From a virus (Duplodnaviria; Caudoviricetes): DNA of 64,000 nucleotides. The notes under the pieces were generated by a model. That model saw only the letters and a program-made list of their open reading frames with translations, searched no databases and was not told the origin of the DNA. Below, piece after piece: positions 16,013 through 53,125 of the stretch (position 1 is its first letter; every line of letters begins with the position of its first letter). The position numbers were made by a program, and so were the translations under genes. The stretch covers positions 192,001 to 256,000 of the IMG/VR virus record IMGVR_UViG_3300009031_000221; one strand, written 5' to 3'.

Positions 16013-16020
16013 TAGAACAC

Positions 16021-17129: not shown

Positions 17130-17210
17130 GGCACCATTGAGCAAAGGCCGCTCGTGACTCTGTAAAAGTCATCTTTCACCGGGGAGGTGGTTCGATACCA
17201 CCTGGTGCCA
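17130..17210 (+). tRNA. tRNA-Tyr(GTA), second copy
   Basis: Cloverleaf; loop CUGUAAA. Confidence 0.8.
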
Positions 17211-17263
17211 CCCCGGGTTCCTGGACTAATCCGAAAGGTTCAAAATCCAGGAACCCGTATAAT

Positions 17264-17356
17264 GGATCCGTGGCCGAGAGGCTTATGGCGCTCGTTTCGA
17301 AAACGAGATGTCGGTGATGAGCCGGCACACAGGTTCAAATCCTGTCGGATCCGCCA
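17264..17356 (+). tRNA. tRNA-Ser(CGA)
   Basis: Long variable arm; loop UUCGAAA; encoded CCA. Confidence 0.9.
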
Positions 17357-17427
17357 ACGTCTGCTATGTTGCAACAGGGAAGCAATACCTCCGGGTATGT
17401 CGGGTTCGAATCCCGAGGCGTTATTAT

Positions 17428-17517
17428 GGAGATGTGGCCGAGCCCGGCTTATGGCGTCAGTCTTGAAAACTGAAGGGTGTAAAAGCTCCAGGGGTTCGAA
17501 TCCCTTCGTCTCCGCCA
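17428..17517 (+). tRNA. tRNA-Ser(TGA)
   Basis: Loop CUUGAAA; encoded CCA. Confidence 0.9.
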
Positions 17518-17529
17518 GTGTCTAACCAA

Positions 17530-17622
17530 GGAAGCGTACCCAAGTGGTTAAGGGGGCGGTTTGCTAAACCGTTAGGTCGTCTAGAAAACGGCGCGTGGGT
17601 TCAATCCCCACCGCTTCCGCCA
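17530..17622 (+). tRNA. tRNA-Ser(GCT)
   Basis: Loop UUGCUAA; encoded CCA. Confidence 0.9.
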
Positions 17623-17631
17623 GTGTCCGAT

Positions 17632-17719
17632 GTCATCGTGGGGAAATTTGGTAGACCCATTAGCTTGAGGTGCTAACGCTCGCAAGGGCATACGGGTTCG
17701 ACTCCCGTCGATGACACCA
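17632..17719 (+). tRNA. tRNA-Leu(GAG)
   Basis: Loop UUGAGGU; encoded CCA. Confidence 0.9.
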
Positions 17720-17831
17720 GTTCATAGGATAAGTGTTGAACATATGTGTGAAGCGGGCGCCCGTAAATCACACGGATAATCCGTCCTGATAGTATCGGGA
17801 AAATTCAGGTCAAACCCTGATGAGCTAAAAT

Positions 17832-17923
17832 GGAAACGTCGTCTAGTGGCCGAGGGCACCCGCTTGGAAAGCGGGCGATCATGTAAAAGTGGTCCGGGAG
17901 TTCGAATCTCCCCGTTTCCGCCA
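17832..17923 (+). tRNA. tRNA-Ser(GGA)
   Basis: Loop UUGGAAA; encoded CCA. Confidence 0.9.
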
Positions 17924-17935
17924 GTGTGTAAGAAT

Positions 17936-18007
17936 GCCCCTATCCGCTAGTGGTTAGGCGACCGGATTCTCAATCCGTCAACATCGGTTCAAATCCGATT
18001 AGGGGCA
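17936..18007 (+). tRNA. tRNA-Glu(CTC)
   Basis: Loop UUCUCAA. Confidence 0.85.
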
Positions 18008-18020
18008 CTGAGTAAATAAT

Positions 18021-18091
18021 GGGTTGGGTGCTGGGCACGGATTGGTCTCCAAAACCGATCTTCGAGGGTTCGATTCCCTCCCTTCTCGCCA
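18021..18091 (+). tRNA. Atypical tRNA-Trp(CCA)
   Basis: Loop CUCCAAA; very short D-arm GUGC-UGG-GCAC; two U-U mismatches in the acceptor stem; encoded CCA. Confidence 0.6.
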
Positions 18092-18092
18092 T

Positions 18093-18235
18093 GAGGGGTA
18101 CGCCAAACGGATTGGCACAAGCATTGAAAACTTGAAAACAGTAAACATGCTTCACAACTCGTCAACATTCCTTCGGGAATGCCGACAATCAGTTAAGCAC
18201 ACACGCAATAGTAGGTTCGACTCCTACACCCCCCA
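18093..18235 (+). ncRNA. tRNA-like RNA carrying the conserved inserted stem module (remote copy)
   Basis: Acceptor, D and T arms present; insert UGCUU..ACUCGUC..GACAAUC..AAGCA-CACACG. Confidence 0.7.
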
Positions 18236-18421
18236 CTAATTCGGATCCGGCAATGATTCAAATAGGATTTCACCGTCCTCGCGGAGCCATGCAATGACAT
18301 GACCCGAAAGTACTAGATTAATCAATGCCTGATCAATTTCAGGAGTAGCTGAAGGTGGCAAGGCCCTTAGATGGGCAACGGCATCTTCTACGGAGATAGG
18401 TTCAAGAGTCAAAGGGGGCAT
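18236..18421 (-). CDS. Small hypothetical protein antisense within the tRNA operon
   Basis: 61-aa ORF filling a gap between tRNAs. Confidence 0.4.
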   Translation of the reverse strand: MPPLTLEPISVEDAVAHLRALPPSATPEIDQALINLVLSGHVIAWLREDGEILFESLPDPN

Positions 18422-18450
18422 ATCGGCACCTCAGAGATATTGTACCATAT

Positions 18451-18524
18451 GCTTGGGTAGCTCAGCAGGTAGTAGCACTAGACTGAAAATCTAGGTGTCG
18501 TCGGTTCAATTCCGACCCCAAGCA
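18451..18524 (+). tRNA. tRNA-Phe(GAA)
   Basis: Loop CUGAAAA. Confidence 0.85.
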
Positions 18525-18538
18525 CTTGAATTGTAAAT

Positions 18539-18614
18539 GCTTCATTAGCTTTGATGGTCAAAGCGTCGGCTTGAAACCCCGAAGAATTCCGTTCGATACG
18601 GAGATGGAGCACCA
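18539..18614 (+). tRNA. Atypical tRNA-Phe(GAA)
   Basis: Loop UUGAAAC with a C-C mismatch in the stem; encoded CCA. Confidence 0.6.
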
Positions 18615-18616
18615 TC

Positions 18617-18688
18617 GAATGTCGTAGTTCAACGGTAGAACTGGGACTGAACGTCTTGCATGAGGGATTCAATCGCCCTCCGCATTCG
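18617..18688 (+). pseudogene. Degenerate tRNA (Phe-like)
   Basis: Good D-arm; 5-nt anticodon loop and 9-nt T loop. Confidence 0.45.
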
Positions 18689-18693
18689 AGTTG

Positions 18694-18762
18694 TTTGGAA
18701 GTGCCCGGTGGCAGGGCGGCGGTGTGATACCGTGTGGGATGGTTCGATTCCATCATCCAAAG
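18694..18762 (+). pseudogene. Degenerate tRNA (His-like, GUG in a non-canonical loop)
   Basis: Canonical T arm GAUGG-UUCGAUU-CCAUC; irregular anticodon loop. Confidence 0.45.
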
Positions 18763-18769
18763 TTTCTAA

Positions 18770-18842
18770 GCCCGGATAGCTCAGTTGGTAGAGCGGAAGC
18801 CTGAAGAGCTTCGCGTCGGCGGTTCAACTCCGTCTCCGGGCG
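18770..18842 (+). tRNA. tRNA-Phe(GAA)
   Basis: Loop CUGAAGA. Confidence 0.9.
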
Positions 18843-18847
18843 CTGAT

Positions 18848-18932
18848 GGGGATGTGGGCTGTCAAGGAGAATTGGCACATCCGGCAGACTTAAAATCTGC
18901 CGCCTTTGAGGGTTCGAATCCCTTTGTCCTCA
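18848..18932 (+). tRNA. Atypical tRNA-Leu(TAA)
   Basis: Loop CUUAAAA; enlarged D region; short variable arm. Confidence 0.65.
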
Positions 18933-18947
18933 CTGTAGTGGTAAAAT

Positions 18948-19021
18948 GCTGGGGTAGCCCAATTGGCAGAGGCAATAGGTTTAGGCCCTATACGGTGTGG
19001 GTTCGAATCCCATCTTCAGCA
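18948..19021 (+). tRNA. tRNA-Leu(TAG), short variable arm
   Basis: Loop UUUAGGC. Confidence 0.85.
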
Positions 19022-19033
19022 CTAGAACACTAT

Positions 19034-19110
19034 GCAAGCGTAGCCCAATTGGCAGGAGGCAACAGTTTCAAAAGCTGTGCAGTGTGGGTTCGAATCCCAT
19101 CGCTTGTACC
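19034..19110 (+). tRNA. tRNA-Leu(CAA), short variable arm
   Basis: Loop UUCAAAA. Confidence 0.85.
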
Positions 19111-19120
19111 GTAACTTAAT

Positions 19121-19204
19121 GCAATCGTGGCGGAACGGTCTACGCAGGGGTCTCAAAAACCCCCGGTCTAAAAAACCTTGTGAGTTCGAATCTCACCGAT
19201 TGCA
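19121..19204 (+). tRNA. tRNA-Leu(CAA), long variable arm
   Basis: Loop CUCAAAA. Confidence 0.9.
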
Positions 19205-19213
19205 CTTTCAATA

Positions 19214-19885
19214 GTGCGGCTATTAGCCCTACATGATATGGCTACTATTCCATCAAAAGAGCATTTAGCTAATCTATACCAGATCCTTTCGGATTCGGCA
19301 ATTGCCGAATCCTTTTCGGTAAGTCCTGCGACTGTTCTCCGTTGGCGGAGACATTACGGCATTCTATCTAAACCGAGAGGTCCAAGGGCGATTTCGGGGC
19401 AATTGAGTTTCCGGGATATATCAGACGAGGCAATCAAAGCAGCGATCCCAATGTGTTTCTCAGTGATGGAGGTATGCCGTAAAGTCGGTCTATGTGAAAC
19501 GGGACAAGGGCACACCAAAATGAAAGTGAAGATTTCCCATCTAGGGGTAGATACTTCACATTTTGGAACACAACACCCTCGTACATTAGGTCTGAAGGGA
19601 TACCAGCAATCCCTTCAGAGCCTATTAGTTGAAGGGTCTATTGCCCAGTCCAACAAGTTGAAACAGAGATTGCTGAAGGAGGGCATTCTGGCAGAAGAAT
19701 GTTCTCAATGTTATTGTTTGCCGGTATGGTTAGGCAAGCCCTTGACGTTGCAACTTGATCATATCAGTGGTGATTCTACGGATAATAGATTGGGTAATCT
19801 TCGTCTCCTTTGCCCCAATTGTCACTCGCAAACGGTAAACTATGCGGGTAGAAACAAATCTAGATCAGATAAGGCGCATCCATGA
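19214..19885 (+). CDS. Free-standing HNH endonuclease with N-terminal HTH
   Basis: CSQC..LQLDHISGDSTDNRLGNLRLLCPNCH. Confidence 0.9.
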   Translation: MRLLALHDMATIPSKEHLANLYQILSDSAIAESFSVSPATVLRWRRHYGILSKPRGPRAISGQLSFRDISDEAIKAAIPMCFSVMEVCRKVGLCETGQGHTKMKVKISHLGVDTSHFGTQHPRTLGLKGYQQSLQSLLVEGSIAQSNKLKQRLLKEGILAEECSQCYCLPVWLGKPLTLQLDHISGDSTDNRLGNLRLLCPNCHSQTVNYAGRNKSRSDKAHP

Positions 19886-22163: not shown

Positions 22164-22607
22164 CTAGAGCAGCTTCAGTAGCCCCGTGATCTTATCGATG
22201 GATTCGGCTTCTGCGGGACCGATTGCCAAGGCAGTCCAAGTCGGGACGCCATGGAACTCTGTGAAGCCGCTGTCTTGGATAGCGGCACAGGGCAAGCCCG
22301 CGGCCAGGGCAATGTCTCGGAGGGCGAGGAATTCATCTTCCGATCCAATCCCAACGCAAATCTTGGTGAATGAACCGTCTAGCCATTGCTGCATGGCGGA
22401 TGACATACGCAGCATGAATGCCCGTTCCTCATCTTCCATGAGTTCGGCAGTCTGGCAAAACGTGTAGCCTTCCCATTTACGGTTGGCAAACCCGTAGCTC
22501 CCGGCATCCAACAGAACCTTCATGCTGGCATGTGCTGCCTGAGCGCACATCTTGCCCTTACGCATGTTGAGATCCGTGCGAAGTACGATGACCTGTTTTA
22601 CTGGCAT
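22164..22607 (-). CDS. pth2: Peptidyl-tRNA hydrolase, Pth2 family
   Basis: KQVIVLRTDLNMRKGKMCAQAAHA, DSGFTE, IGP motifs. Confidence 0.92.
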   Translation of the reverse strand: MPVKQVIVLRTDLNMRKGKMCAQAAHASMKVLLDAGSYGFANRKWEGYTFCQTAELMEDEERAFMLRMSSAMQQWLDGSFTKICVGIGSEDEFLALRDIALAAGLPCAAIQDSGFTEFHGVPTWTALAIGPAEAESIDKITGLLKLL

Positions 22608-22898: not shown

Positions 22899-22932
22899 TG
22901 GTAGACTCCTGTATGATATCTATCTACGCATC

Positions 22933-23334
22933 CTATCGTTGAAGTAAGCCTGCGGTTTGTTCGCGTTGGATTGCATCTGGCCCCTGATTCAGATCGAGGC
23001 AAATCTGATCAATGGCTGCCAATACTTGATCTCGATTAGAACCCGTAGCGATGGAAAACGACAACCCTTTATAGTTGTTTGCCATAATCCGGTACAGCGG
23101 CCTATCATAGACATGGTACCTGTGCCTGCCTGTCCACTGGTAATCTTGCTTGCCCAGCCACATGATCAGGACGCTGACTATACCGGGCTTGGACATGAGG
23201 GACGCCGTCTTGGATACGTACCTATGAACATCCATCAAGCGCTTGACGCTATCATCATCATTGAAAACGAAGTTGAGGATATCGGACATATCGCGTGATT
23301 CCAATCGTTCCGTATTGTTCTTCCAAGTACTCAT
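22933..23334 (-). CDS. Hypothetical protein
   Basis: 133-aa ORF, ATGA overlap with the vWA gene. Confidence 0.65.
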   Translation of the reverse strand: MSTWKNNTERLESRDMSDILNFVFNDDDSVKRLMDVHRYVSKTASLMSKPGIVSVLIMWLGKQDYQWTGRHRYHVYDRPLYRIMANNYKGLSFSIATGSNRDQVLAAIDQICLDLNQGPDAIQREQTAGLLQR

Positions 23335-26231: not shown

Positions 26232-27470
26232 GTGAGTGCAACGAATCCAAATAGTATCCCATGTCGTGAGTGCGGGATAGAGGTACTTGATTACCTCCCC
26301 AATCACTTGACAGAGCAACATGGGATTTCCACGGAGGTTTATACCGTTAGGTATCCTGGGGCTGTGACGATCTCCCAGCGTTTGCTGGATCGATTTGCGG
26401 CCCTCAAGGTTCCTCGTCGGGAAACCCCGAGGCATCCCAAAGACCTGACGATTCCTTTCGCTAACATCATATTCCCCGTCAACCCGGATGTTGAAGAGGA
26501 AGCTTGCCTCCCTTTGCCTGACCAGTACCGAATCCCGAAGCACGGATCTCTAGGGGAAGATGTGCAGCACGTTGCCATTGCCCTCAAGCACCGTCGGTCG
26601 ATTTATGTATGGGGCATGCCCGGTACCGGTAAGGACGCACTGTTTCACGCATGGTCAAGTCTGACTCGCACCCCGGCAATCATCCGTCAAGTCCAGCCCG
26701 GAACCGATATTGAATCATGGTTTTTCAGCCGTGGGTTCAATACCAACGGCACCGTATGGGAGGAAGGCGAAGTACTCAAGGCATTGAGGGATGGCTATCT
26801 TGCATCCCAGTATTCGGATCATATCCGTGTCAACCGGCGGATTCCTTACATGCTATTGCTGACGGACTTTGATCGTGCCGAACGGGATCAAGCTGAACAT
26901 CTCCGGTTGGTTGGGGACAGTATTCAGGGACGTGTTCCTGGTCCCGCTGGCAAAGTGTACAAGGTATTCGGTGGAACCATCATCGCCGCAACGGGAAATA
27001 CCGCCGGCGGGGGCGATGAACGGGGACGCATGATCTCCGCGAACCCTCTGGACGCATCCCTGTTGGAACGCTTTCAACGGAAAATCCAATTCCACTACAT
27101 GAGTTGGGAGGATGAAGGCCCCGTTGTTCGTGCCAAGTTCGGCCCATTGTTCCAACGGTTTCCTACAGCGGAACACAAATGCCGCGAAGTTACCAAGGCT
27201 TTGCGTGATGCTGTCGTGAATGATGATATTCATGGCGAATTCAGCCATCGTGCTTTGTGTAACATCTTGAGCCATGCCTCGGATATCGTAGAAGAGAACC
27301 AGGGCAAGGCTTTGCCGAAGAATCTTTTGGGGGTTGCATCCCGCGTTTGGATGGATGGTCTTCCCGATGAGGATAACCGTTTGGCGGCAAAGCGTCTTAT
27401 TGATCCTCACTTTGCATCTTTGGATGACGCTACCCCAGCAGGTATCAAGCCCACAGGACTTCGCAAATGA
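26232..27470 (+). CDS. CobS/MoxR-like AAA+ ATPase with N-terminal zinc finger
   Basis: Walker A GMPGTGKD, LLLTDFDRA, AATGNT, LLERF; CREC..HLTEQH. Confidence 0.8.
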   Translation: MSATNPNSIPCRECGIEVLDYLPNHLTEQHGISTEVYTVRYPGAVTISQRLLDRFAALKVPRRETPRHPKDLTIPFANIIFPVNPDVEEEACLPLPDQYRIPKHGSLGEDVQHVAIALKHRRSIYVWGMPGTGKDALFHAWSSLTRTPAIIRQVQPGTDIESWFFSRGFNTNGTVWEEGEVLKALRDGYLASQYSDHIRVNRRIPYMLLLTDFDRAERDQAEHLRLVGDSIQGRVPGPAGKVYKVFGGTIIAATGNTAGGGDERGRMISANPLDASLLERFQRKIQFHYMSWEDEGPVVRAKFGPLFQRFPTAEHKCREVTKALRDAVVNDDIHGEFSHRALCNILSHASDIVEENQGKALPKNLLGVASRVWMDGLPDEDNRLAAKRLIDPHFASLDDATPAGIKPTGLRK

Positions 27471-28381
27471 CAATGACAACCCCTCCAAATTTGACGGCAA
27501 AGGACTTCCGCACTCCACTTCTCAAGGTGCTCGGAATCCTATCGAACTTCAAGGAGTCCGTTGAGGTTCCTTTGGATAGTACGTACGACCCCATCTTCAC
27601 CATGATGGGCATTGCACGTACTGAACATCTGGAGAAGCGAATCCAATGGGCTTTCAATGAAATGAAAGGCTCAGGGCTTGCGGTAGGTAGGCGTGCCAAG
27701 TGGGCTCTCACACAGCAGGGTGTAGACGCTGCACAAGGCCTTGTAGCCGCTTCCACGCCAATTACCGTCCCCATGCCTGCCGATCCTACATCAGACGATT
27801 CTACGGGCAATCCTGTGGCGTCTGTCGGGTATCACCCAGACCCTTACATTCGGCACTTGGCGTTGAATGACCATCCGTGCCTTGGATTCTTCACGTCACA
27901 GAGCCCCATTTGCTCGACTTGTCTTGCCCGTTTGGAATGCATGAATGCCATGGCTGCCAAGCTTGCGGGATTGGCTTTGGAGATTGTTCAGGAAGAGGCT
28001 ATTGCGGCGGAGAACGCAAGGCGTGCTGCTTTGCCTCCCCCTTCAATCGCTAGTGTCGTAGCAGGGTCTGTAGGCCCGGCGCCAGTACCGGGCTTTGCGG
28101 GAACGACGGTAGCATCCGCGGTAGCCAACGGCACGGCTAACGTTGGAACCAACGGTAATGTTGTGGTTGCGAAGACCCCTGCAAATATGATGGTCACGAA
28201 CAAGATTCCCGCCGGCGCCAAGATCATTCCGATGACTTGCCAAGCTCAGGCTTTGTGTGCAGGTTGCCGTGTCAACATCGACTTGGGGGCTGATGCCGTA
28301 TGGGTTCGGGGTACTGGTAACGGCGGCAAGTCCTCTGATATGTACCACAAACCATGCTATGAACAGGCGAGCCAGAACTAA
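27467..28381 (+). CDS. Protein with Mrr_N-like winged helix and Cys-rich domains
   Basis: N-terminus LTAKDFRTPLLKVL..KWALTQQG parallels 2060-3196. Confidence 0.6.
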   Translation: MTMTTPPNLTAKDFRTPLLKVLGILSNFKESVEVPLDSTYDPIFTMMGIARTEHLEKRIQWAFNEMKGSGLAVGRRAKWALTQQGVDAAQGLVAASTPITVPMPADPTSDDSTGNPVASVGYHPDPYIRHLALNDHPCLGFFTSQSPICSTCLARLECMNAMAAKLAGLALEIVQEEAIAAENARRAALPPPSIASVVAGSVGPAPVPGFAGTTVASAVANGTANVGTNGNVVVAKTPANMMVTNKIPAGAKIIPMTCQAQALCAGCRVNIDLGADAVWVRGTGNGGKSSDMYHKPCYEQASQN

Positions 28382-28382
28382 C

Positions 28383-28877
28383 ATGAAAGTACCTGCAACA
28401 CATGCCGAAACAATTCGGCAAGCCATCCAATCCATGGGGAACATGGATCGGGAAGTCGCGAATGAGATCCCGAAGATGCCTAAGGAGGATCTTGTCATCC
28501 TTGGGCAACGGCTATGGTGGCTCATCAAACGGGCGACTCGTACCCTCGATCCTATCAAGGCACGCTTCCGCGAATTGGCAATTCAACAGGCATCGGGTGT
28601 CGCAGGCAACCAACGATTTGAAGCTACGGATGGATCTCACTGTATCGTGGTTATTCAGAACGTAACTCCAGTAGTTCGCAAGGATTCCGATATGGCTAAG
28701 TTGCGGGCGTCAATTGGGGATGTCCTGTTCGATCAATGCTTTGATACCGTCACTGTGTATAAGCCCAAGAAGAATATTCAAGAACTGGTAGCAGGTATGC
28801 CGCCAGATAACGCCAATTCCATCATGTCCATCCTGGATATGGCTGATGGAACCCCAAAGGTAATGTTCAAGGACTGA
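28383..28877 (+). CDS. Hypothetical protein; likely start MKVPATH
   Basis: Starts 1 nt after the upstream stop. Confidence 0.7.
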   Translation: MKVPATHAETIRQAIQSMGNMDREVANEIPKMPKEDLVILGQRLWWLIKRATRTLDPIKARFRELAIQQASGVAGNQRFEATDGSHCIVVIQNVTPVVRKDSDMAKLRASIGDVLFDQCFDTVTVYKPKKNIQELVAGMPPDNANSIMSILDMADGTPKVMFKD

Positions 28878-28887
28878 GGAGGTCATC

Positions 28888-29571
28888 ATGATTTTGCTAG
28901 AGATTTTCGCATTCGGTACTGTAGGCTTCTGGGCCTTGTGTGCTTTGGTTTGGATTTTGTTGACGGCTGCTGTGGAGTTCGAGAAGCCCGGGCTGGCGAC
29001 GTTCTCCTTGCTGGTAGCATTCGGGGCATTGTCCTACTTTGGCATCATCGACGTTCAGGCCTTGATCTCCAATCCTTGGATGGTGGTCAAAGGCGTCAGC
29101 GGCTACTTGCTGGGCGGACTCATTTGGGCGGCTTGCAAGTGGGTGTTTTACGTCCGCTCCGTTGGCAGGAAGTATGATGATGACAAGCGGCAATTCCTGG
29201 AGTCTCAGACTCCTCCAATTGAAGGGATGAATATCCCTGATGACTTCTTGGAGAAGTGGCAGCAGCACATTCGGTACCGCCCTGAAATCAAGAAGCCCAA
29301 TGCCCGCAATAGCAAGGCACGCATCATGACCTGGATGGTGTACTGGCCTTGGTCTTTCGTATGGACAATGATCGATGATCCGATCAAGAATGCGTTTCAC
29401 AGTATCCTGCACTGGACTCAGGGCATGTTCCAAAGGGTGTCCGATCAGTTGTGGGGCAATCGTGATGAGGACTTCCGTGCCCCTCCGCCGAAGAAGGCGG
29501 AACCTGTTCCGGAAGAATCCCCAGATGGATATCCATCCCAGTACCCGACTCGTCAGTATCGGGGTCGTTGA
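28888..29571 (+). CDS. Membrane protein
   Basis: Several hydrophobic segments; GGAGG RBS. Confidence 0.75.
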   Translation: MILLEIFAFGTVGFWALCALVWILLTAAVEFEKPGLATFSLLVAFGALSYFGIIDVQALISNPWMVVKGVSGYLLGGLIWAACKWVFYVRSVGRKYDDDKRQFLESQTPPIEGMNIPDDFLEKWQQHIRYRPEIKKPNARNSKARIMTWMVYWPWSFVWTMIDDPIKNAFHSILHWTQGMFQRVSDQLWGNRDEDFRAPPPKKAEPVPEESPDGYPSQYPTRQYRGR

Positions 29572-35968: not shown

Positions 35969-36483
35969 TTCTCTACTTCATCGTATTCATACAAGGTATC
36001 GCTGTCAATCCCTGCCTTCTCTTCCCCTTGCGGTTCCCTCGCCTTGTCCATACGCCTACCGCAAACGATTAGCGTATTCCTCCTGTCTGCTTCGTAGGCG
36101 AGAAGCTCACGTTGTAGCAGATGTTGGAAGAATCCAGGTGTACCACAAGCCGTGCCCCCCGTGTTGCACCCAACGTATGCAACCACACTCGCCCGCTCGA
36201 GGATCTCGACAAGACCGTCGATGGCACGACTGTTTGTTGGCCATGCAACGAAGGCCACATCCACCGAGTCCATGAAATCCGCGAAGTACCCATGGATCAC
36301 CTCGATTTGTGGATGCTTCCGCATCCGTGATATTTCCTTGTCCAAAGCCACCGCACGAGTAGCCCCAAGGGAAATGATGTATCGAGACCATTCTCCCGAC
36401 CCGGCACCTAAGTCTGTCACGACCCGGTTCCGAATGAATGGGATCAAGGTTTCCTTTTGCTTGTCGGTTAACCCACCAAACAC
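35959..36483 (-). CDS. Class I SAM-dependent methyltransferase-like protein
   Basis: VVTDLGAGSG motif I; VALDKE motif II. Confidence 0.7.
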   Translation of the reverse strand: MFGGLTDKQKETLIPFIRNRVVTDLGAGSGEWSRYIISLGATRAVALDKEISRMRKHPQIEVIHGYFADFMDSVDVAFVAWPTNSRAIDGLVEILERASVVAYVGCNTGGTACGTPGFFQHLLQRELLAYEADRRNTLIVCGRRMDKAREPQGEEKAGIDSDTLYEYDEVEKCW

Positions 36484-36534
36484 AGATCACCTCATCCGAG
36501 TGATCTACGCACTTGCTGCCAGAAGTAAGTCTGG

Positions 36535-37286
36535 CTAGATGATTCGGAGGACGATGGCAGTGATATTGTCGTTCCCGCCATTCGTATTTGCCTGTCGAAT
36601 CAATTCGTAGACCGCCTGCTTGGGATCGGGATTCGATTCCATGATTCGCAGGATCTCATCGTCTTCGACTTCCCCAGACAAGCCATCCGAACACAGCAAG
36701 TACATGTCCCCAGACTGGGCATCGATCGTCATGATCGGCACCTTGACGGAATCACTCAACCCACAGGCCTGTGTGATGATGTTCTTATGCGGGCACGTGG
36801 CTACCTGTTCCTTGGTGATATACCCTGCATCGAGGTAATGCTGTACTGCCGAATCTTGGTCAACTGATCCAATGACCCGTCCCGCAGTCGATAGATACGG
36901 CTATCCCCCACATGGCCAACCGTGACGTTGTCTTCCCCAACCATCAAGGCAACAACGGTCGTGCCCATGCGATTGACGCGAACATTCCCCTCTGACATGT
37001 TCTTGGAGAAGATCTCAAAGTTCGCCCAATGAATGCACCCATGGATCAGGTTCTCATTGGGGGTCAAGCCCGATTGAACTGACCAAGGGGCTACGGCTTC
37101 CGGATCCGCCAATGCACTTAGAGTCCGTTGGAACGTATCGACAAGCATCTGAGAGGCCACTTCCCCGTCGATATGTCCGCCCATCCCATCCGCGACAACA
37201 AACACCCTATCGGCAATGAGAAGATTGTCCTCATTGTGAGGGCGCCTTTTACCTACATCCGTTTGACCGGCAACTTCGTACTTCAT
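36535..37286 (-). pseudogene. PP2C-family Ser/Thr phosphatase split by a frameshift at about 36855
   Basis: NED, VADGMGG and GHVGDSR in frame 1; KNIITQACG, LLCSDGL and GGNDNIT in frame 2. Confidence 0.85.
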
Positions 37287-37322
37287 GTGAGGCCTCCGAT
37301 ACTTGAGCGGATAGGGGATCTA

Positions 37323-37790
37323 TCAGACGGGCATGAGTTCGCGAACCAGGGTTAAGGTTTCGCCCAACCAGTTCGTCCCCTGCCACCGACTGCGATCCTC
37401 TGCACGGGGATCGTCACGGGGCAAACCAATTCCCCAGACTTTGTCGTAAGGGCTAGCCTCAACCAGGGTCGTACCCTTGGTTGCCAACAGGAGAACCTTC
37501 AGGTCAGGGTTTTGCGCGTACTTCGCCATGCTGGCACGGAATACAACATCCTTGGCGACACTGTTCCACTTGTCCGCATTGAACCCTTTGACGGAACGCC
37601 CAAGGCGCTTCATCTCCTTGGGATCCGAGGTTGCCATGATCATGAGGGCGGCGTCCTTGTCATCAAAGAGCCTTGCCTTCTCAACCATCATGTATTGTTC
37701 AGCACACGTGTAGTGGTATCCGTCAATCTTGAATCTTGACGGATACCACTGGCTGAAAGGTCCGTCCCAGAAGAATGTGAACTTTTCCAT
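37323..37790 (-). CDS. NADAR (YbiA-like) family protein; start MEKFTFF
   Basis: PFSQWY, TCAEQYMM, KRLGRSV, LVEASPYDKVWGIG, GTNWLG. Confidence 0.9.
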   Translation of the reverse strand: MEKFTFFWDGPFSQWYPSRFKIDGYHYTCAEQYMMVEKARLFDDKDAALMIMATSDPKEMKRLGRSVKGFNADKWNSVAKDVVFRASMAKYAQNPDLKVLLLATKGTTLVEASPYDKVWGIGLPRDDPRAEDRSRWQGTNWLGETLTLVRELMPV

Positions 37791-37797
37791 GCTTTCC

Positions 37798-38622
37798 TTA
37801 GATGATCCGCACGAGGGGTCGGATCCTGTCCGGCCATGCCGCACCGTTGATTGCCTCATGAATGTCCGACTCGCGGTACCGGGCAGAGAAGTGCGTCAGC
37901 ACCAATGCCTGGGTGTCGAAGATCTCCGCACGATCCACCAGTTCCTGCAAATGCGTGTGACCACGCTCATCTGCATGAGCCGGAGTTCTATCCCCGGCTG
38001 AATAGGTCGCCTCAGTGATAATCACCTGAGCGTGACGGATGTCCTCAACCCGATCCCACACCGAGACTCGAGTGTCCCCCGTGTAAACCAACCGGGTCAC
38101 GGGATTTACCGTGGAAACTTCCACGCCCTGCGAACGCAATCGGGCAATCTCATCGCCCGGCATCCCAAGGTATTCCGCTTTCAGCTTCTTGCGAGTCTCG
38201 ATGATTCGGTATCCCTGCGACTCGATCCGATGGTCGGTGATGAACGGACGAACGGACAACCCCTTGCCCAGGTCATACGTGACCTCAGGAGGCAGCGGAA
38301 CGATGGTGCAAGGGATTTGCTCGCCGTTTTTCGCACCCTCCAGGGCACCCCAAACCTTGAACAGGGACTGCAGGCTAGGAGCGAGACCGGGAGGAACGAT
38401 GAACACGGAAGGGGTCATCCCCAGCAGGGCACGCCTCGCCGCATGCATGGTGATAGCACCGATATGATCCATATGACCGTGCGTGATCAGTACGGTTTGG
38501 CAGTTGACGGCATCAACCGTCATCATGCCAATGTCCAAGGCAATGCCCATCTGCGGCAACGTGATGCACGTTTCCATACCGCTAACGGAGACACCTTGCA
38601 TTTGGATTCCCGCACAAATCAT
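37798..38622 (-). CDS. Metallo-beta-lactamase fold RNase Z-like tRNA 3' processing nuclease
   Basis: THGHMDH, DHRIESQGY, YTGDT, EATY, HTH, LTHFSARY. Confidence 0.85.
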   Translation of the reverse strand: MICAGIQMQGVSVSGMETCITLPQMGIALDIGMMTVDAVNCQTVLITHGHMDHIGAITMHAARRALLGMTPSVFIVPPGLAPSLQSLFKVWGALEGAKNGEQIPCTIVPLPPEVTYDLGKGLSVRPFITDHRIESQGYRIIETRKKLKAEYLGMPGDEIARLRSQGVEVSTVNPVTRLVYTGDTRVSVWDRVEDIRHAQVIITEATYSAGDRTPAHADERGHTHLQELVDRAEIFDTQALVLTHFSARYRESDIHEAINGAAWPDRIRPLVRII

Positions 38623-38841
38623 CGAAAGTTCCTAGTAGACATGATGTCCGCTATAGGATCTACGCTAAACTGATAAGAAGTAAGTGGCCGACACAAGAAG
38701 ATTAGTCCGCACGAAGTCTCGTAACTGCTTAATGCAGTCCGTTAGCACTAGTGACAACCCCATTTAGAGTGTTGCCCCCATCCCATTCGCGGTTGCCCGG
38801 TTAGGTACCTTAGCGACGATAGTAAATCTTCCTGGCCGGCC

Positions 38842-38915
38842 GGTGGATCCTGCGGGAGTCGAACCCGCGACTCTGCAATGCGAATGCAGTGTTTTCCCAA
38901 CTGAACTAAGGACCC
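38842..38915 (-). tRNA. tRNA-Ala(CGC)
   Basis: Loop UUCGCAU; G3-U70. Confidence 0.9.
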
Positions 38916-39142
38916 GTATGTTCACACTTCTCCATATTGAATCTACCTGGATAGTGCAACTGCTTCCACAAAGGCAAATCTCCATCACAGTTGTAATGAA
39001 TTGCCCAGTTACCTACGAAACATGCGAAGTGCGGGGATCGATAGGGCGATCGGATATACCCATTGATTCCCGTCATGGTGCCGATTCTACCATTAGGCCA
39101 GTAGTACAACCATGCTAATGCTGCACCGGTCAAGCAGTTCAT
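38906..39142 (-). CDS. Hypothetical protein
   Basis: 78-aa ORF, ATGA overlap with the upstream gene. Confidence 0.45.
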   Translation of the reverse strand: MNCLTGAALAWLYYWPNGRIGTMTGINGYIRSPYRSPHFACFVGNWAIHYNCDGDLPLWKQLHYPGRFNMEKCEHTGP

Positions 39143-39432
39143 CGGGGGAACACAAGGATGGTGAACCCATCCAACGTTCCATCAGGGAACGTTGCCGCAA
39201 TCTTGGCCTTGAATGATTCAACATCACCTTGCCGAAGAATGACTTCCAGCTTGTTTGACCGCAATAGATCCGTTGAATACTTGAATTCTTTGCCCGGTTT
39301 CAACATCGTGCGGAACTTGATCCGCGTTGAGTACTTTTCCGGGTGCCGAACCATTTCTTCAAATGTGGCTTGGCTTGGACTACGGCTGGGGGCACAATCG
39401 TTTGGTTCGCGAATGAAGCGATTCTTTCCCAT
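39139..39432 (-). CDS. Hypothetical protein
   Basis: 97-aa ORF downstream of the cytochrome gene. Confidence 0.6.
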   Translation of the reverse strand: MGKNRFIREPNDCAPSRSPSQATFEEMVRHPEKYSTRIKFRTMLKPGKEFKYSTDLLRSNKLEVILRQGDVESFKAKIAATFPDGTLDGFTILVFPR

Positions 39433-39450
39433 GTGCCCCCAGTCCCGTAA

Positions 39451-40068
39451 TTACTTCGTGTGGCACGCCAAGCAAAGGCTGCTGCCGGTATTGAGCATGC
39501 GGAGGAACTTGCCCTTCGAGTTGTCATGCACGCTATGGCATGTCGCACACTGCAACTGGGCGCTGAACAGCGGGAGCATCGAAGCTGCATCCACGAACTT
39601 GTCGTTGACCGGAGTCTTCAATCCACCATCTGCCGTTGCCAAAGCCGCATCGTAGACGAACGAAATTGGATGGTCATTGGTCAAATCGGTACCAACCTTC
39701 GCACCCCCCGGATCCATCATGTGCGAACCCGAGTTGTTCGCGTAGGAATCCACTGCAACCGTGCCGTCATGGCAGGACAGGCACAGTTTGGAATTGCCCG
39801 TAGGTTGCCCCAAGACCGCATTCAATGTGCTGCTGCTGTACGTGCTGAACGTAGCCATGGTCACGGCATGGTTCCACAGCGGAGCGCCCGGAACGGCTGC
39901 CGCATTGTGAGGCGTATGGCAGAAGATGCAAACCTGGGTCGTGCCCCAGCCCTTGGACGACAGGTCGTGAGGAGTGCCCACGATCCCTGCGAATGCCGGG
40001 GACTTCCACTCCGGAAGAGCCAACAAACCCAACAATACAACGAGAACGAACAATGATTTACGGAACAT
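39451..40068 (-). CDS. Exported tetraheme c-type cytochrome, OmcE-like
   Basis: Signal peptide ending AFA; four CxxCH (CIFCH, CLSCH, CATCH, CLACH); HDLS, PLWN and GTDLTNDHP motifs. Confidence 0.9.
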   Translation of the reverse strand: MFRKSLFVLVVLLGLLALPEWKSPAFAGIVGTPHDLSSKGWGTTQVCIFCHTPHNAAAVPGAPLWNHAVTMATFSTYSSSTLNAVLGQPTGNSKLCLSCHDGTVAVDSYANNSGSHMMDPGGAKVGTDLTNDHPISFVYDAALATADGGLKTPVNDKFVDAASMLPLFSAQLQCATCHSVHDNSKGKFLRMLNTGSSLCLACHTK

Positions 40069-40175
40069 GCTGCCTCCCTATTGGGGCTTATTTGTTCATG
40101 CCCCGTGATTTACCCTAATGATAGGCGGAATACCACCCTACAACGTCTACGCATTTCTATGAAGAAGTAAGCCTA

Positions 40176-40436
40176 TCAGATGTCGCTTTGTTGACGCTGA
40201 TGTGCCCAATCCCGCTGGCGTTCAATGCAAAGGTCGGATTCCATGACGGCACCGGCGGAAAGAACCAGCCAACCATCCGTCCATTCTCCATCTTCTTCCT
40301 TGAGCTTCGTGTACTTGCCGACGACGGCCTTGCCCGTAGGAATCCAAGCCGTCTGCTTGGTGCTTTCGCGTTGAAGTTCGCATTGGGTATGTGTCGTATG
40401 CTTTGCCATCGGATGCTCCTGAGGTGAATTTGCCAT
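40176..40436 (-). CDS. Hypothetical protein
   Basis: 77-86-aa ORF; AGGAG RBS before MAKHTT. Confidence 0.55.
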   Translation of the reverse strand: MANSPQEHPMAKHTTHTQCELQRESTKQTAWIPTGKAVVGKYTKLKEEDGEWTDGWLVLSAGAVMESDLCIERQRDWAHQRQQSDI

Positions 40437-40685
40437 GTTCGGGGGGTTTAAAGACTGTTACGTTTCGCGGTCTCCCAGGCATGGGAACTATTCCGCCGTC
40501 GATCCCCGAACTACTTGCCCCCGAAATCGCCCCGATCCCTGCCGTTTCTATTGCTAGATTTTGACAGGGCGTGGCTTCGTGGAGGGCTACACGTTTTGAT
40601 ATATCATTCGTTTGTGGAATAAGCGGGCATTGCCGCAAACCCCGATAGTTCCACTATACCCCAGTATGAGTTAGGAGGTCAACAA

Positions 40686-41204
40686 ATGGCGACAATCAAT
40701 AAGACATGTGAGAACTGCACGAAAGAATTCCAGGCCGAAATACGGGAAGTTAACCGAGGCTTTGGTAGATTCTGTACTAGGGCTTGCTCAGGTGCTTTTT
40801 GGGCGACAAGGCGATCCCGGACGACGGCTACTTCGGTTGTTTGCGCTTACTGCAAACAGGATTTCCTGAAGACACCTTCCAAAATGAAGAATGCTAAGAG
40901 TGGCATGTATTTTTGTTGTCGTGAACACAAGGATCTGGCACAACGCCTTGGAGGCATTGTCGCCATACATCCAGAACATTACGGAGATGGCCATGCAGAG
41001 TATCGGAATGTTGCATTCCGTAATTACCCTTCGATTTGCAATCGATGCGGCTATCAACGATTCCCTGATGTTCTCGTCGTTCACCATAAGGATCGAAACA
41101 GGAACAACATTTCCATTAGCAATTTGGAGATTCTTTGCCCCAATTGTCACGGGGAAGAGCACTTTGTTGCCAAGGATGGAATCTGGAGAAATCAAATAAA
41201 GTAG
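40686..41204 (+). CDS. HNH endonuclease with zinc fingers, antisense to the surrounding tRNA cluster
   Basis: CENC, CAYC, VHHKDRNRNNISISNLEILCPNCH; GGAGG RBS. Confidence 0.9.
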   Translation: MATINKTCENCTKEFQAEIREVNRGFGRFCTRACSGAFWATRRSRTTATSVVCAYCKQDFLKTPSKMKNAKSGMYFCCREHKDLAQRLGGIVAIHPEHYGDGHAEYRNVAFRNYPSICNRCGYQRFPDVLVVHHKDRNRNNISISNLEILCPNCHGEEHFVAKDGIWRNQIK

Positions 41205-41277
41205 TGGAGTTGACAGGGATCGAACCTGCGACATTCGGCTTGCAAAGCCGACGCTCTCCCAACTGAGCTACAACCCC
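41205..41277 (-). tRNA. tRNA-Ala(TGC)
   Basis: Loop UUUGCAA; G3-U70. Confidence 0.9.
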
Positions 41278-41527
41278 AAAATGATATACCGGGAAACATT
41301 AATGATAACGGTACGGGCGGAAATGAGGGTTCCCCCGTACCTGTAACATGTCTGCCCCTCATACATACACGGTTCAGAGTGGCGAATCCCCGTGCTAGCA
41401 CCATTTCCTTCTTATGCCACCATCATGTTCCTTTCAGGCGGACAAGATCCTCTTTGCATCATTCCCCCTAGAAAGGAACTTAGCCTCACCTCCAAACCGG
41501 TCGACTCGGCGGTGGGCAAGGCACAAA

Positions 41528-41601
41528 GGAGCGGGCGATGGGATTTGAACCCACGACTTTCGGCTTGGGAAGCCGTTACTCTACCGCTGAGTTACGCCCG
41601 C
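41528..41601 (-). tRNA. tRNA-Gly(CCC)
   Basis: Loop UUCCCAA. Confidence 0.9.
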
Positions 41602-41787
41602 ACAGTACAGGGCCGTATTGGTGAAGACCAACCGTTTATTCGCACCCTGCAAGGCCGTGTTATATCACCACTAGGGCCTCACCGGCATAGCCCTAGTTGA
41701 ACTGGTGCGTGTCCCTATCTATCAGGTTGTCGTTCAATTGGGATACACGCGAAACCCAATTGACACTTAGGCAACCTAACAGGTTCT

Positions 41788-42015
41788 CTACACTCGTCGA
41801 ACTACAACACCGTCTTTTACCGAGGGTCGCCCTTGAGCTTCCCAGGCACGCTTGCATGTGCGGCATTCGCATTTACATACATGCGGCAATGTAATGTTCC
41901 GATCTGCGTCGGAACCAAGCACAAGATCATCTAATGTGGTCACAACCACTGGACAATCCATGTGATCACGTTCCCATTCATCTAACGAACCCCAAACAGC
42001 ACACTTGTTATCCAT
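41788..42015 (-). CDS. Small Cys/His-containing hypothetical protein
   Basis: 75-aa ORF. Confidence 0.5.
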   Translation of the reverse strand: MDNKCAVWGSLDEWERDHMDCPVVVTTLDDLVLGSDADRNITLPHVCKCECRTCKRAWEAQGRPSVKDGVVVRRV

Positions 42016-42229
42016 TTACCTTTGCCTTCTTCGAATTTGCTACCGAACTACACCCTTCGTGGGGACAAAGGACACAGCATATGCTCGGTAGCCACACATA
42101 GGGCCTAGACGGTCTACTTCCCAACACAGGAACTCGACTCTATAAGCCTCCACCACTGGATTTAACTCGCCACCCACTTTCGCAGATGCCCTGTCCTACA
42201 AATCCAGAAAGGACTTCCTTCTACGGAGG

Positions 42230-42302
42230 TGGAGTAGATGGGACTTGAACCCATTACCTCCTGCATGCCATGCAGGCGCTCTCCCAGGTGAGCTACTACC
42301 CC
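42230..42302 (-). tRNA. tRNA-Ala(GGC)
   Basis: Loop AUGGCAU; G3-U70. Confidence 0.85.
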
Positions 42303-42772: not shown

Positions 42773-44179
42773 CTACGCTTTGAAAGTCAAGATAGGCCTC
42801 ATCTTTGCCACCTTCGACAATATACCCGCCGTTACCTGGGATTGTATCACGGGACCAATGTCCTTGTACGCGGCGGGCGCTTCCTCGATTTTACGCTCAT
42901 ACCGCAATGAAATGCAATCCACACCGTCTAACCCAAGGTTGCCTTCGCGTTTCATGTCCACTCGGGATTGACTTCGACCCGCACCGTGACTTGCCGACAG
43001 CAAGTGTTCTTCCGAACCCAACCCCTTGCAAACATACGATGCTGACCCCATGGACCCAGGAATGAGAAGCCAATCTCCCAGGTTCGCCGGGCAAGCCCCC
43101 TTGCGTTGAATCCATGTCCCCGAATGTTCCAAAGTGATGTTGTGCGGAATGTCTGTAATCATCGGGCACTCCAGGTCGTCCCCGAACACTTGTCGCATTC
43201 TCAATCGGGCAATCTCGGCAATCAACATGCGATTGACCCAGGCATAGTTGACAGCCGTAGCTTCTGCCGTCAAGTAATCCAGTTGACCTTCATCCTCCAG
43301 CAATGGAAACATGTGGCTAGTAGGGAATGGACGCTTGGTTGCTTCCCAGGCCTTACGTGCCCGAGTTTGAGCGTTCTGCCCAACATACAACCCGACGAAT
43401 CGGGAACCCGTATGCGCCATGAACCCGACTTGCCCTACCTTGATTCCCAGGGCATACGCCGCATGCCTATCTAGGATTTCTTCTACGACCTGGAATTCTA
43501 CGAAGTGGTTGCCCCCTCCAATAGTTCCCAACCCGTCATCCCGAATGATCTTGGATCCTATGCCGTCTACCAAGCCTTGAGGGGCGTACTTAACATCTCC
43601 ACGGGCAATGTTTGTGTACTGAACTCGATCACACTCCTCGTGCAACTGCTCAATGCGGGAAGCCTGCGTCATGCCATGCTTCCAACCATCATTGTCCTGG
43701 GCCTCGAGCCACCCAAGTAATCCGTCCGTGAACATCGCCTTTTGGACGCTTACGGTTTGTGCCACATCTCGAGTGCCAAAGAAGTAATCCCCCTTCAGCA
43801 ATTCGACCAAGGCGTCCCGCTTTGCCAGGAACTGATCAATGGTCAAATCCGTGAGGTGCAATCTCATGCCACAGTTGATGTCCGTACCAATGGCTGCCGG
43901 AATCAGAAACTGTGTTTGAACTACGGAACCAATGGCAACGCCCGCATCTCCAGGATGGAAATCCGGTGTGGCACAACATCGAGTGACGCCTTCCAAAGAA
44001 GCCAGATTGGCTAGCTGTAGAAGGGCTTTGTTCTCAACCGGCAATTCGTCTGGAAGCAATACATCCGCATAGGGAAGGTGGTCATGATTGGCAATACGAA
44101 CTTGCCAACCGCCATCGACCTTACGAACATCGAGGCCTTCTTTGACTAGAGCCTTTAGAAGGCGATCGTGATTTGCCAT
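42773..44179 (-). CDS. rtcB: RtcB-family RNA ligase
   Basis: TPDFHPG, GTDINCG, GGGNHF, HTGSR, PHN, RKGA, SHGAGR motifs. Confidence 0.93.
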   Translation of the reverse strand: MANHDRLLKALVKEGLDVRKVDGGWQVRIANHDHLPYADVLLPDELPVENKALLQLANLASLEGVTRCCATPDFHPGDAGVAIGSVVQTQFLIPAAIGTDINCGMRLHLTDLTIDQFLAKRDALVELLKGDYFFGTRDVAQTVSVQKAMFTDGLLGWLEAQDNDGWKHGMTQASRIEQLHEECDRVQYTNIARGDVKYAPQGLVDGIGSKIIRDDGLGTIGGGNHFVEFQVVEEILDRHAAYALGIKVGQVGFMAHTGSRFVGLYVGQNAQTRARKAWEATKRPFPTSHMFPLLEDEGQLDYLTAEATAVNYAWVNRMLIAEIARLRMRQVFGDDLECPMITDIPHNITLEHSGTWIQRKGACPANLGDWLLIPGSMGSASYVCKGLGSEEHLLSASHGAGRSQSRVDMKREGNLGLDGVDCISLRYERKIEEAPAAYKDIGPVIQSQVTAGILSKVAKMRPILTFKA

Positions 44180-44762: not shown

Positions 44763-44851
44763 GATTGATACCTCAGTTGGGCGCATAGGCACCATGAATC
44801 AGGTCATCCGTGACCTTGCATCATCTACGCGGAATCATCAGGAAGTAAGCC

Positions 44852-49700: not shown

Positions 49701-49734
49701 GTTCCATCTACGCGGCAGCCCCTGAAGGTAAGCC

Positions 49735-50480: not shown

Positions 50481-50531
50481 GATCCATCTACGCATGAACC
50501 ACCTGAAGTAAGCCCAGGGTTCAGATCTTTT

Positions 50532-51919: not shown

Positions 51920-51961
51920 GACATTCGTCCTTGCGGGGCATCATCCGTGCCCATGTCTTAT

Positions 51962-53125
51962 CTACGCGGGGCGGACAGAAAGTAAGCCTTTGGCATCAAC
52001 TTTCCGTGAAGTTAACGCTTCCTCGGGTGCCATACCTCGTGCTAGACGACTTCGTATCCAAGCAGCACTTAGGTCCACTTCCTCGATCCAGGCTGCCAAG
52101 CACTGAGTCCTACCCCATGCCTTGATCATCAGGTTATCGTTTCGGTTACGCATCTGTTCCTGATTTGTGGCCCAACGAACATTCCCTGGGTGATACCCCT
52201 TATCGTTGTCTATTCGGTCAAGAGTGTGTTTCGCAGATGGGGCATGTCCAACGTGTTCCAGGAAAGATGCAAAGCCGCCTGGGGATTTCCACCCTTCATG
52301 TAGGGTTCGTTTTCCATCACGGCATCTCCGCACCATCTGATACCAATGTTTGTATTCCTTGGATGCCGATGGAGTATGTGCCCGTGAATCTCTACCTTGT
52401 ATGGATTCAGGCGTAGGGTCTCTACGAAGATTCGGGGTGGACACAATTTGTTCTGGAGTCCAGCCAAGGGCCAACCTTGCAGCCAAAGTGTTCGTTTTGA
52501 TGCCGATCTCTTCGGCCCATGCTGTCAGACTTTGCGTCCTCCCGAGGGCTTGTAGAAATCTGGTTTTGGATGTGTTTCTAGCCTGTTCTTTAGGGGATGC
52601 CCAACGGACATTCCCTGGCACATACCCCAAGTTATTGTCAATCCTATCCAGGGTGTTGTGCCCTTTTGGAGACACACCTACATGATCCAGAAAGGATACA
52701 AATCCGTCATGCCCAACCCACTCAGGGTGTACGACAACACCTTTGCCACCGTATTCTGGGTAGGCTGTAGAGGTGTGCCTGAGACATCGATCCAGCATGC
52801 CCTGCCAGGATTTGTATTCCGGGGTGTCTGACTTCCCATGTGTGCTTTCCCAACCGGCCGCCTGGAGTCTCTCAGGTGACCAGCAACCACATGAGGTGGT
52901 GTTCCCGGATTGAATGTGGTCCAAACGGGTTACGAATTGCCGTCCACAGTCGCATTGCACCGTGACTTCGTATCTCTTTGTCCCTGCTCTCCTGATGGAT
53001 TCACTCAGGACAAGAATCCTGCCAAATCGTTCGCCTTTCCATGATTTCTTGTTTCTCATGTGGACAAGGTAACACAATCTCCCTTTCGTGTCCAACATTC
53101 GCACAATCAAATATGTGGCGTTCAA
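51962..53125 (-). CDS. Homing-type endonuclease with two tandem HNH-like modules; likely start MRNKKSW at 53059
   Basis: Two copies of TLDRIDN..GY.PGNVRWA; CDCG..SCGC. Confidence 0.85.
   Translation of the reverse strand: MNATYLIVRMLDTKGRLCYLVHMRNKKSWKGERFGRILVLSESIRRAGTKRYEVTVQCDCGRQFVTRLDHIQSGNTTSCGCWSPERLQAAGWESTHGKSDTPEYKSWQGMLDRCLRHTSTAYPEYGGKGVVVHPEWVGHDGFVSFLDHVGVSPKGHNTLDRIDNNLGYVPGNVRWASPKEQARNTSKTRFLQALGRTQSLTAWAEEIGIKTNTLAARLALGWTPEQIVSTPNLRRDPTPESIQGRDSRAHTPSASKEYKHWYQMVRRCRDGKRTLHEGWKSPGGFASFLEHVGHAPSAKHTLDRIDNDKGYHPGNVRWATNQEQMRNRNDNLMIKAWGRTQCLAAWIEEVDLSAAWIRSRLARGMAPEEALTSRKVDAKGLLSVRPA

Follow-up and report, generated by a model that had tools for sequence, protein, structure and literature searches.

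The cytochrome locus

The window (the whole stretch of DNA analysed, 64 kb) carries on its minus strand a gene for a predicted secreted cytochrome of 205 aa, P0001, with a signal peptide, four CxxCH motifs and four extra histidines, just as an earlier note on this DNA had described it (Table 1). By inspection and alignment, the N-terminus combines a basic n-region (MFRK), a 14-residue hydrophobic core and a predicted cleavage site: the mature start GI(V/A)GTxHDLS is kept across relatives while the leaders vary, and P0001 reads GIVGTPHDLS at this point. P0001 is the sole multiheme ORF of the phage genome. The orphan ORF of 97 aa that follows it is probably co-transcribed, has neither a family nor a link to nanowire clusters, and shares with the other flanking ORF (86 aa) the absence of homologues in any of the loci compared. 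Downstream of this unit lie a metallo-beta-lactamase-fold protein with a weak match to the Anti-Pycsar protein Apyc1, a NADAR protein and a PP2C phosphatase, forming a candidate counter-defence cluster.

Table 1. Positions of the features discussed, counted from the first letter of the window.
Feature	Position	Strand	Basis or remark
CDS of the OmcE-family tetraheme cytochrome P0001, 205 aa, stop codon included	39451..40068	minus	phmmer vs PDB
Predicted Sec signal peptide, residues 1-27, cleavage between AFA and G	39988..40068	minus	inspection
H34 (HDLS), non-motif heme ligand at the N-terminal end, residue 7 after the predicted cleavage site	39967..39969	minus	alignment
Heme motif 1, CIFCH, C47-H51	39916..39930	minus	alignment
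Distal-ligand His H54 (CHTPH), after heme motif 1	39907-39909	minus	alignment
H67 (WNH)	39868-39870	minus	
Heme motif 2, CLSCH, C96-H100	39769..39783	minus	alignment
H133 (NDHP), non-motif heme ligand, invariant	39670..39672	minus	aligns with NDHP of 7TFS and 9YUQ
Heme motif 3, CATCH, C174-H178	39535..39549	minus	alignment
Distal-ligand His H181 (CHSVH), after heme motif 3	39526-39528	minus	alignment
Heme motif 4, CLACH, C199-H203	39460..39474	minus	alignment
Orphan ORF, 97 aa, starting 18 nt past the cytochrome stop	39139..39432	minus	probably co-transcribed
Candidate counter-defence cluster, three ORFs	37798-38622, 37323-37859, 36801-37286	minus	domain matches
RBS, GGGAGG	40073-40078	minus	
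Structured 5' UTR	40069..40143	minus	MFE -27.5 kcal/mol, z -2.5
Second hairpin, GGGGC...GCCCC	40083-40104	minus	
Hairpin GGGUGG-UAUU-CCGCCU	40123-40138	minus	contains the earlier-proposed 'motif'
Phage-specific bipartite promoter-like motif, GGCTTACTT-N13-CGTAGA, fixed 28 nt	40146..40173	minus	recurrence
Copies of the bipartite motif in the window	22923-22950, 40146-40173, 44824-44851, 49707-49734, 50487-50514, 51961-51988	minus (all)	
Phage tmRNA, tag ANDNVEFTSFAAAA	33791-34190	minus	
PTH2 peptidyl-tRNA hydrolase	22164-22607	minus	
GroEL	12528-14264	minus	
RtcB	42773-44179	minus	

A member of the OmcE family

To which cytochrome family does P0001 belong? A phmmer search of all PDB sequences returned 7TFS over the full length (E 1.8e-31) and 9YUQ over residues 16-205 (E 6e-25), the third-best match being already at E 0.37. 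7TFS represents the OmcE nanowire of G. sulfurreducens as modelled from cryo-EM (PMC12954529), and 9YUQ is the OmcE nanowire bundle of D. soudanensis (PMC13712944). Pfam and NCBIfam see generic paired-CXXCH or multiheme domains only (Paired_CXXCH_1 at E 2e-10 in Pfam, with weak matches to Cytochrome_C7 and c3).

The features conserved in OmcE are four CxxCH regions and four further heme-ligating histidines (PMC13712944). In an alignment of 55 relatives, all 8 of the 8 cysteines and all 8 of the 8 histidines that act as heme ligands are invariant, and H34, H54, H133 and H181 of P0001 each align with the matching histidine in both 7TFS and 9YUQ; H34, which corresponds to the HDLS histidine of 7TFS, is present in 55/55 relatives and in every viral copy. 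The motif order of G. sulfurreducens OmcE, as given in the earlier note, is reproduced by the phmmer alignment with 7TFS. A ninth histidine, H67, is invariant in this compact subfamily of 55 sequences, its position being occupied by Arg or Lys in both solved OmcE proteins (PLWNR) and in three viral copies.

An AlphaFold2 monomer of P0001, computed without hemes, was of low confidence (pLDDT 59.5), unsurprisingly for a protein with about 80% coil whose fold forms around the hemes, and it was used for fold search only. With this heme-free model, Foldseek gave 7TFS as the sole significant PDB match (E 1.8e-8, 39% identity, TM 0.45). A complex prediction with two mature copies and four hemes scored 0.01, and is silent on binding either way. 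The proposed OmcE-family tetraheme identity is thus recovered by both the sequence and the fold search: at the level of sequence, P0001 is a member of the OmcE family, and its polymerisation is a prediction.

Could P0001 nevertheless be a periplasmic cytochrome that forms no filament, a small protein that carries electrons, stores them like a capacitor or buffers redox state or iron, and so eases the redox balance of the infected cell? Small tetrahemes are often periplasmic shuttles, such as cytochrome c3/c7, and the weak Pfam matches to Cytochrome_C7 and c3, together with a phage devoid of barrel or propeller genes, fit this possibility. Yet its only strong structural relatives are two OmcE filaments, and its nearest bacterial orthologue resides in a full nanowire cluster. 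An OmcE-type monomer would moreover be incompletely ligated, because one interface heme requires a histidine donated by the neighbouring subunit (PMC13712944, PMC9473688). A periplasmic role appears rather unlikely on these grounds, and an OmcE-type filament subunit is the reading retained below.

Phage genome and integrity of the locus

The source contig is a single IMG/VR virus record of 536,053 bp with a CheckV completeness of 100%, and the region at about 140-154 kb of the genome encodes, by PHROG models, a portal (1e-28), a large terminase (1.6e-27) and a head maturation protease, so that what had been called a phage-like genome is a genuine phage genome. The Pfam models Terminase_6C, Phage_sheath_1 and Cytochrom_C_asm found no match in it. 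Besides 53 tRNA genes and one tmRNA, the window encodes GroEL, RtcB, ThiF, NADAR, PP2C and several HNH endonucleases, a repertoire typical of huge phages; PTH2 peptidyl-tRNA hydrolase, GroEL and RtcB form a translation-maintenance set beside the tRNA arrays.

Closest homologues of P0001 are bacterial and every run that contains the stretch comes from one study, as might be expected if an assembly artefact or host contamination had mis-joined a bacterial gene to phage DNA. The host-derived or chimeric segment that the earlier note had raised as a danger was not found: contigs of four runs, assembled separately, span 36000-42285 and bridge both junctions with 0 differences, breaking at tRNA repeats only, and the identical protein occurs with the same neighbours on contigs assembled separately from other runs (Logan). 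All four bridging runs belong to one groundwater study, and the source sample may be among them. In addition, the GC content of the cytochrome gene (56.6%) lies between that of the phage (52.4%) and that of the closest bacterial orthologues (61-68%), its composition being partly shifted toward that of the phage, while a phage promoter motif stands upstream and the gene is surrounded on either side by phage genes and tRNAs, with tRNA-Ala genes flanking it. Given the same context in separate assemblies, the bridging contigs and the GC content, a chimera or host contamination is very unlikely, to the point of being scarcely credible, and the cytochrome gene sits in a genuine 536-kb tailed bacteriophage.

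This phage carries the cytochrome gene without its usual company. No cytochrome c assembly gene (Cytochrom_C_asm) was found in the genome, the partners encoded in the bacterial OmcE cluster L003 have no homologue in the 536-kb phage, and there is no credible heme-synthesis gene near the cytochrome. A PHROG match to 'porphyrin biosynthesis' (ORF 26232-27470) is without Pfam support, and no phage heme-synthesis gene is claimed. With neither an assembly gene nor cluster partners in the phage, export by the host Sec system and heme attachment by the host would be needed, and any wires would likewise need host export and assembly proteins.

Upstream signals

The earlier note had placed a putative late promoter at 40120-40134 (GGTATTCCGCCTATC). 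This motif turned out to be no recurrent element: it consists of the 3' arm and loop of a small 5'-UTR hairpin, and its 9-mer core GGTATTCCG, found in unrelated and mostly intragenic contexts, was rejected as a promoter since it has no consistent context. A bipartite motif located 12 nt further upstream is in contrast recurrent, with 31 copies in the genome versus 0.15 per shuffled genome. Most copies have an RBS and an ORF 16-114 nt downstream (28/31) and lie on the minus strand (27/31). All but one (30/31) fall between 214 and 524 kb and none near the portal/terminase module, hence the motif marks accessory genes; the 'late' timing finds no support, as the recurrent motif is absent from the structural-gene region.

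Two of the window copies (49707-49734 and 50487-50514) precede ORF-free regions that are probably non-coding RNAs. Between the motif and the cytochrome gene, the 5' UTR is structured, and short GC hairpins of similar form stand between many motif copies and the RBS (GGGCACGGATGATGCCC, GGGCAGGATGCCC, GGGGCATGAAC...GCCCC); they may represent a shared 5'-UTR element. A sigma-70 scan upstream of the cytochrome gene gave no site, and the phage-type motif and the RBS are the sole signals for its predicted expression. The runs listed as containing the stretch include no RNA run, and metatranscriptome-labelled runs of the same study contain next to none of the words of the stretch; both results are uninformative on expression.

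Bacterial relatives, origin and selection

The family is very large: one database gives more than 7,000 matches, and a second one 6,985 clusters at 50% identity. Among cellular genes, the closest are a pair from a single Myxococcales MAG (L011 and L012; 79% and 82% identity over the best tblastn segment, approximately 77% in the tree alignment), to which a DNA search adds a third paralogue, while the next organism in the tblastn scan stands at 49%. A metagenomic protein on a bacterial contig (P0002) is 83% identical to P0001 by BLASTP, and adjoins two NHL propellers, two multihemes, a family-less protein of 653 aa, a PPIase and a sigma-54 two-component system. The minimal omcE cluster has been defined as two multihemes, two beta-propeller lipoproteins and a large beta-barrel (PMC13712944), and judging from its gene content the P0002 locus is such a canonical cluster.

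In the tree, P0001 falls into a nine-member clade with bacterial genes (support 96/94) and is sister to the Myxococcales group; another member of this clade (P0008) is on a clearly bacterial contig. Against the bacterial relatives, dS is saturated, dN is approximately 0.18 and dN/dS approximately 0.1: the gene is under purifying selection. The pattern is read as an old capture from a Myxococcota-like host, followed by selective maintenance. Might the gene rather be a neutral passenger, captured recently from a host and without any role for the phage? Huge phages acquire many host genes, and the surroundings of this one are a mosaic of tRNAs and HNH endonucleases. Such a passenger is however distinctly improbable in view of ligands that remain intact at saturated dS and a dN/dS of about 0.1, of a composition that has moved toward the phage, of the acquisition of a phage-type promoter motif, and of the recurrence of OmcE-like genes in unrelated large phages; capture followed by maintenance is thus the origin that we favour.

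These relatives extend OmcE-like genes to Myxococcota-type hosts, a phylum absent from those with OmcE homologues in PMC13712944. Larger cytochromes, 520-920 aa long and bearing 9-12 CxxCH motifs (11 in most cases), are also present in many bacterial phyla, with an OmcE-like module as their N-terminal 200 residues or so (bacterial loci L020-L025, L027, L029, L031, L033, L035-L037, L039, L040, L042-L044, L049 and L050), and a profile search recovered proteins that reach 1,450 aa in length and in which OmcE-like stretches were matched up to four or five times (P0121, P0193, P0251).

A host clue from the tmRNA

The tag encoded by the phage tmRNA starts with ANDNVEF, the first seven residues of the ANDNVEFALAA tags of several Myxococcota, and the Myxococcales MAG has the tag ANDNVELALAA. 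Tags of the form ANDNVE(L/F/V)ALAA occur in 8/13 Myxococcota tmRNAs (those most similar to that of the phage), and 0/14 control tags begin that way (12 from Thermodesulfobacteriota, one from Acidobacteriota and one from Betaproteobacteria); across 121 Thermodesulfobacteriota genomes, the phage tmRNA matched at the universal 3' end only. The tag points to a Myxococcota host independently of the gene phylogeny, so that Myxococcota, one of the hosts suggested at the outset, is now backed by two independent lines. The tag is useful as a host marker; its tail is longer than in those tags and ends in AAAA rather than LAA, an altered degradation tail. As to provenance, the DNA runs that contain the phage represent one groundwater study, and the nearest bacterial relatives come from other sites.

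Recurrence in other large phages

Is this phage an isolated case? A protein 72% identical to P0001 (P0004) is encoded between gp32 and a UvsX/RecA-like gene, in a neighbourhood that includes a family A DNA polymerase and a T4 endonuclease V homologue, on contigs of approximately 190 kb present in dozens of sample blocks; the gene has a GC content of 43% and is adapted to its 40% GC locus. In IMG/VR, an alignment-based search gave eight loci where a single-sequence search gave nothing. They include L061 (304 kb, 49% identity to P0001), in which the gene lies among tRNA genes, near a tmRNA and tail-fibre and baseplate genes, in a record with TerL; L062 (166 kb, 42%), a 47%-complete fragment with primase and DnaB nearby, in which no TerL was found; L063 (181 kb, 45%), with direct terminal repeats, a CheckV completeness of 100% and TerL in the record; and L064-L067 (12-27 kb, 31-41%), from three smaller viruses, with no cluster partners nearby. 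In L061, the tmRNA is at 6651-7031 (tag AKENVVSYDFSYENVAAVAA) and the tRNAs are at 11055-19565; the match to TerL (record G247, 26865-29005) is split with an in-frame TAG, which may reflect an intron, a split gene or stop-codon recoding.

At least four large phage contigs besides this one therefore bear tetraheme OmcE-like genes, and TerL is present in two of these. Every viral copy retains the signal peptide and the complete ligand set, and the viral loci share essentially nothing else, either mutually or with the 536-kb phage. Viral copies occupy five positions in a tree of 168 rows, and although a single viral clade is not formally rejected (AU test, p = 0.105), independent acquisitions by phages are likely from this distribution. 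Searches of 50,697 GenBank phage records and 72,556 plasmids (PLSDB) gave no OmcE-like gene, and a literature search returned no report of a phage-encoded OmcE or nanowire cytochrome.

Proposed function

What could a phage gain from a single nanowire subunit? We propose an auxiliary gene that resupplies nanowire subunits and thereby sustains extracellular electron transfer in infection, a reading for which we see the chances as evenly poised. The phage would transcribe the gene from its own promoter during infection, the host Sec system would export the precursor, and the host cytochrome-maturation system would attach the four hemes, since the phage itself encodes no maturation gene. The OmcE cluster of the host (outer-membrane barrel, NHL propeller lipoproteins and partner multihemes) would then export and polymerise the phage subunit, with one histidine per subunit ligating the heme of the next, as in OmcE filaments. 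In this way the phage might keep the cell provided with an extracellular respiratory component that is needed in large stoichiometric amounts, even as host expression declines, and sustained extracellular electron transfer would mean energy through the long replication cycle of a huge phage, a benefit that would be analogous to that of psbA in cyanophages.

Export of the protein, its loading with heme, its polymerisation, the timing and the phage's benefit are all inferred. Filament formation is known for two Desulfuromonadia OmcE proteins only, which are approximately 40% identical to P0001 and outside its subfamily, and how much cytochrome filaments matter physiologically is itself under dispute (PMC11077965). 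As the phage encodes no assembly partner, export would be impossible if the true host had no compatible OmcE cluster.

Phage recognition of nanowires has been raised in PMC13712944, and this brings up another role, in which the phage subunit joins, caps or replaces the host nanowires, or fills the export channel, and thus alters a phage receptor, the outcome being superinfection exclusion or receptor masking and not an energy benefit. OmcE filaments are abundant and exposed on the surface, the subunit gene is carried alone and the machinery never, unrelated phages each have their own divergent copy, and the neighbours of the cytochrome gene are of an anti-defence type (the Apyc1-like metallo-beta-lactamase fold protein and NADAR). 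A cap or plug would however need neither the full set of heme ligands, all of which are kept, nor the purifying selection seen over the whole protein, and P0001 shows no extra histidine or truncation relative to its bacterial orthologues. To our knowledge no nanowire-binding phage has been described, and we consider surface remodelling improbable, while keeping subunit resupply as the working proposal.

Meaning

Nanowires made of cytochromes have been regarded as a trait of cells alone, and at least five large phage lineages carry an intact gene for an OmcE-type subunit. It is possible, if on the doubtful side, that the capture of nanowire subunit genes is a recurrent event among large phages in anoxic groundwater and lakes, and that these phages insert the encoded subunits into host filaments. 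If so, infected cells would bear partly virus-encoded 'wires', and phages would directly shape extracellular electron transfer, possibly also cell-to-cell electrical coupling, or would make the wire a receptor shield; such genes would be auxiliary genes of a new class, with an extracellular site of action. Recurrence, selection and the promoter motif would together provide independent evolutionary evidence that subunit supply limits host fitness during infection, and a single small gene offers a handle for testing whether subunit supply alone sets wire output. In iron-rich anoxic habitats, the list of processes open to modulation by viruses would then include extracellular electron transfer, and the recurrence of the gene suggests that phages tap their hosts' ability to breathe on minerals.

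Comparison with known systems

OmcE of G. sulfurreducens (GSU0618, 7TFS), whose filament structure was reportedly published by Wang et al. in 2022 in Nat Microbiol (as cited in PMC12954529 and PMC13712944), is like P0001 a secreted protein of approximately 200 aa with four CxxCH motifs, and has the same order of extra histidines (HDLS, CHTPH, NDHP, CHxVH) at approximately 39% identity. Several of its loop insertions are missing from P0001, as alignment gaps indicate, and polymerisation is only predicted for the latter. Its gene belongs to a cluster (two multihemes, two NHL propellers and a barrel), whereas P0001 is phage-encoded and alone. The OmcE homologue of D. soudanensis WTL (9YUQ) has the same ligand set as P0001, and its bundle-forming loops are not conserved in the family (PMC13712944). 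Closer still are the genes of the Myxococcales MAG (L011, L012) and of contig L003, which have the same length as P0001 and approximately 77-83% aa and 70-76% nt identity; at least one of them lies in a full nanowire cluster beside a sigma-54 two-component system. They differ in their GC content, 61-68% against 57% for the phage copy, which also has a phage promoter motif.

The nearest precedents on mobile elements are the NapC/NirT multiheme of amoC-phages and the multihemes of archaeal Borgs and related elements. The former is likewise host-derived, carried singly by a large phage, and groups with the homologues of the predicted host; P0001 belongs to another family than NapC/NirT and reaction-centre proteins, and is predicted to be an extracellular subunit of a polymerising type, in contrast to a membrane quinol dehydrogenase. 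In Methanoperedens, Borgs and jumbo extrachromosomal elements encode multiheme cytochromes (PMC9605863, PMC13444090), and both resemble the present phage as giant mobile elements with cytochromes of extracellular electron transfer. They are however archaeal and non-viral, and their multihemes are large, whereas the gene described here, carried by a tailed bacteriophage with portal and terminase, encodes a four-heme subunit of the nanowire type.
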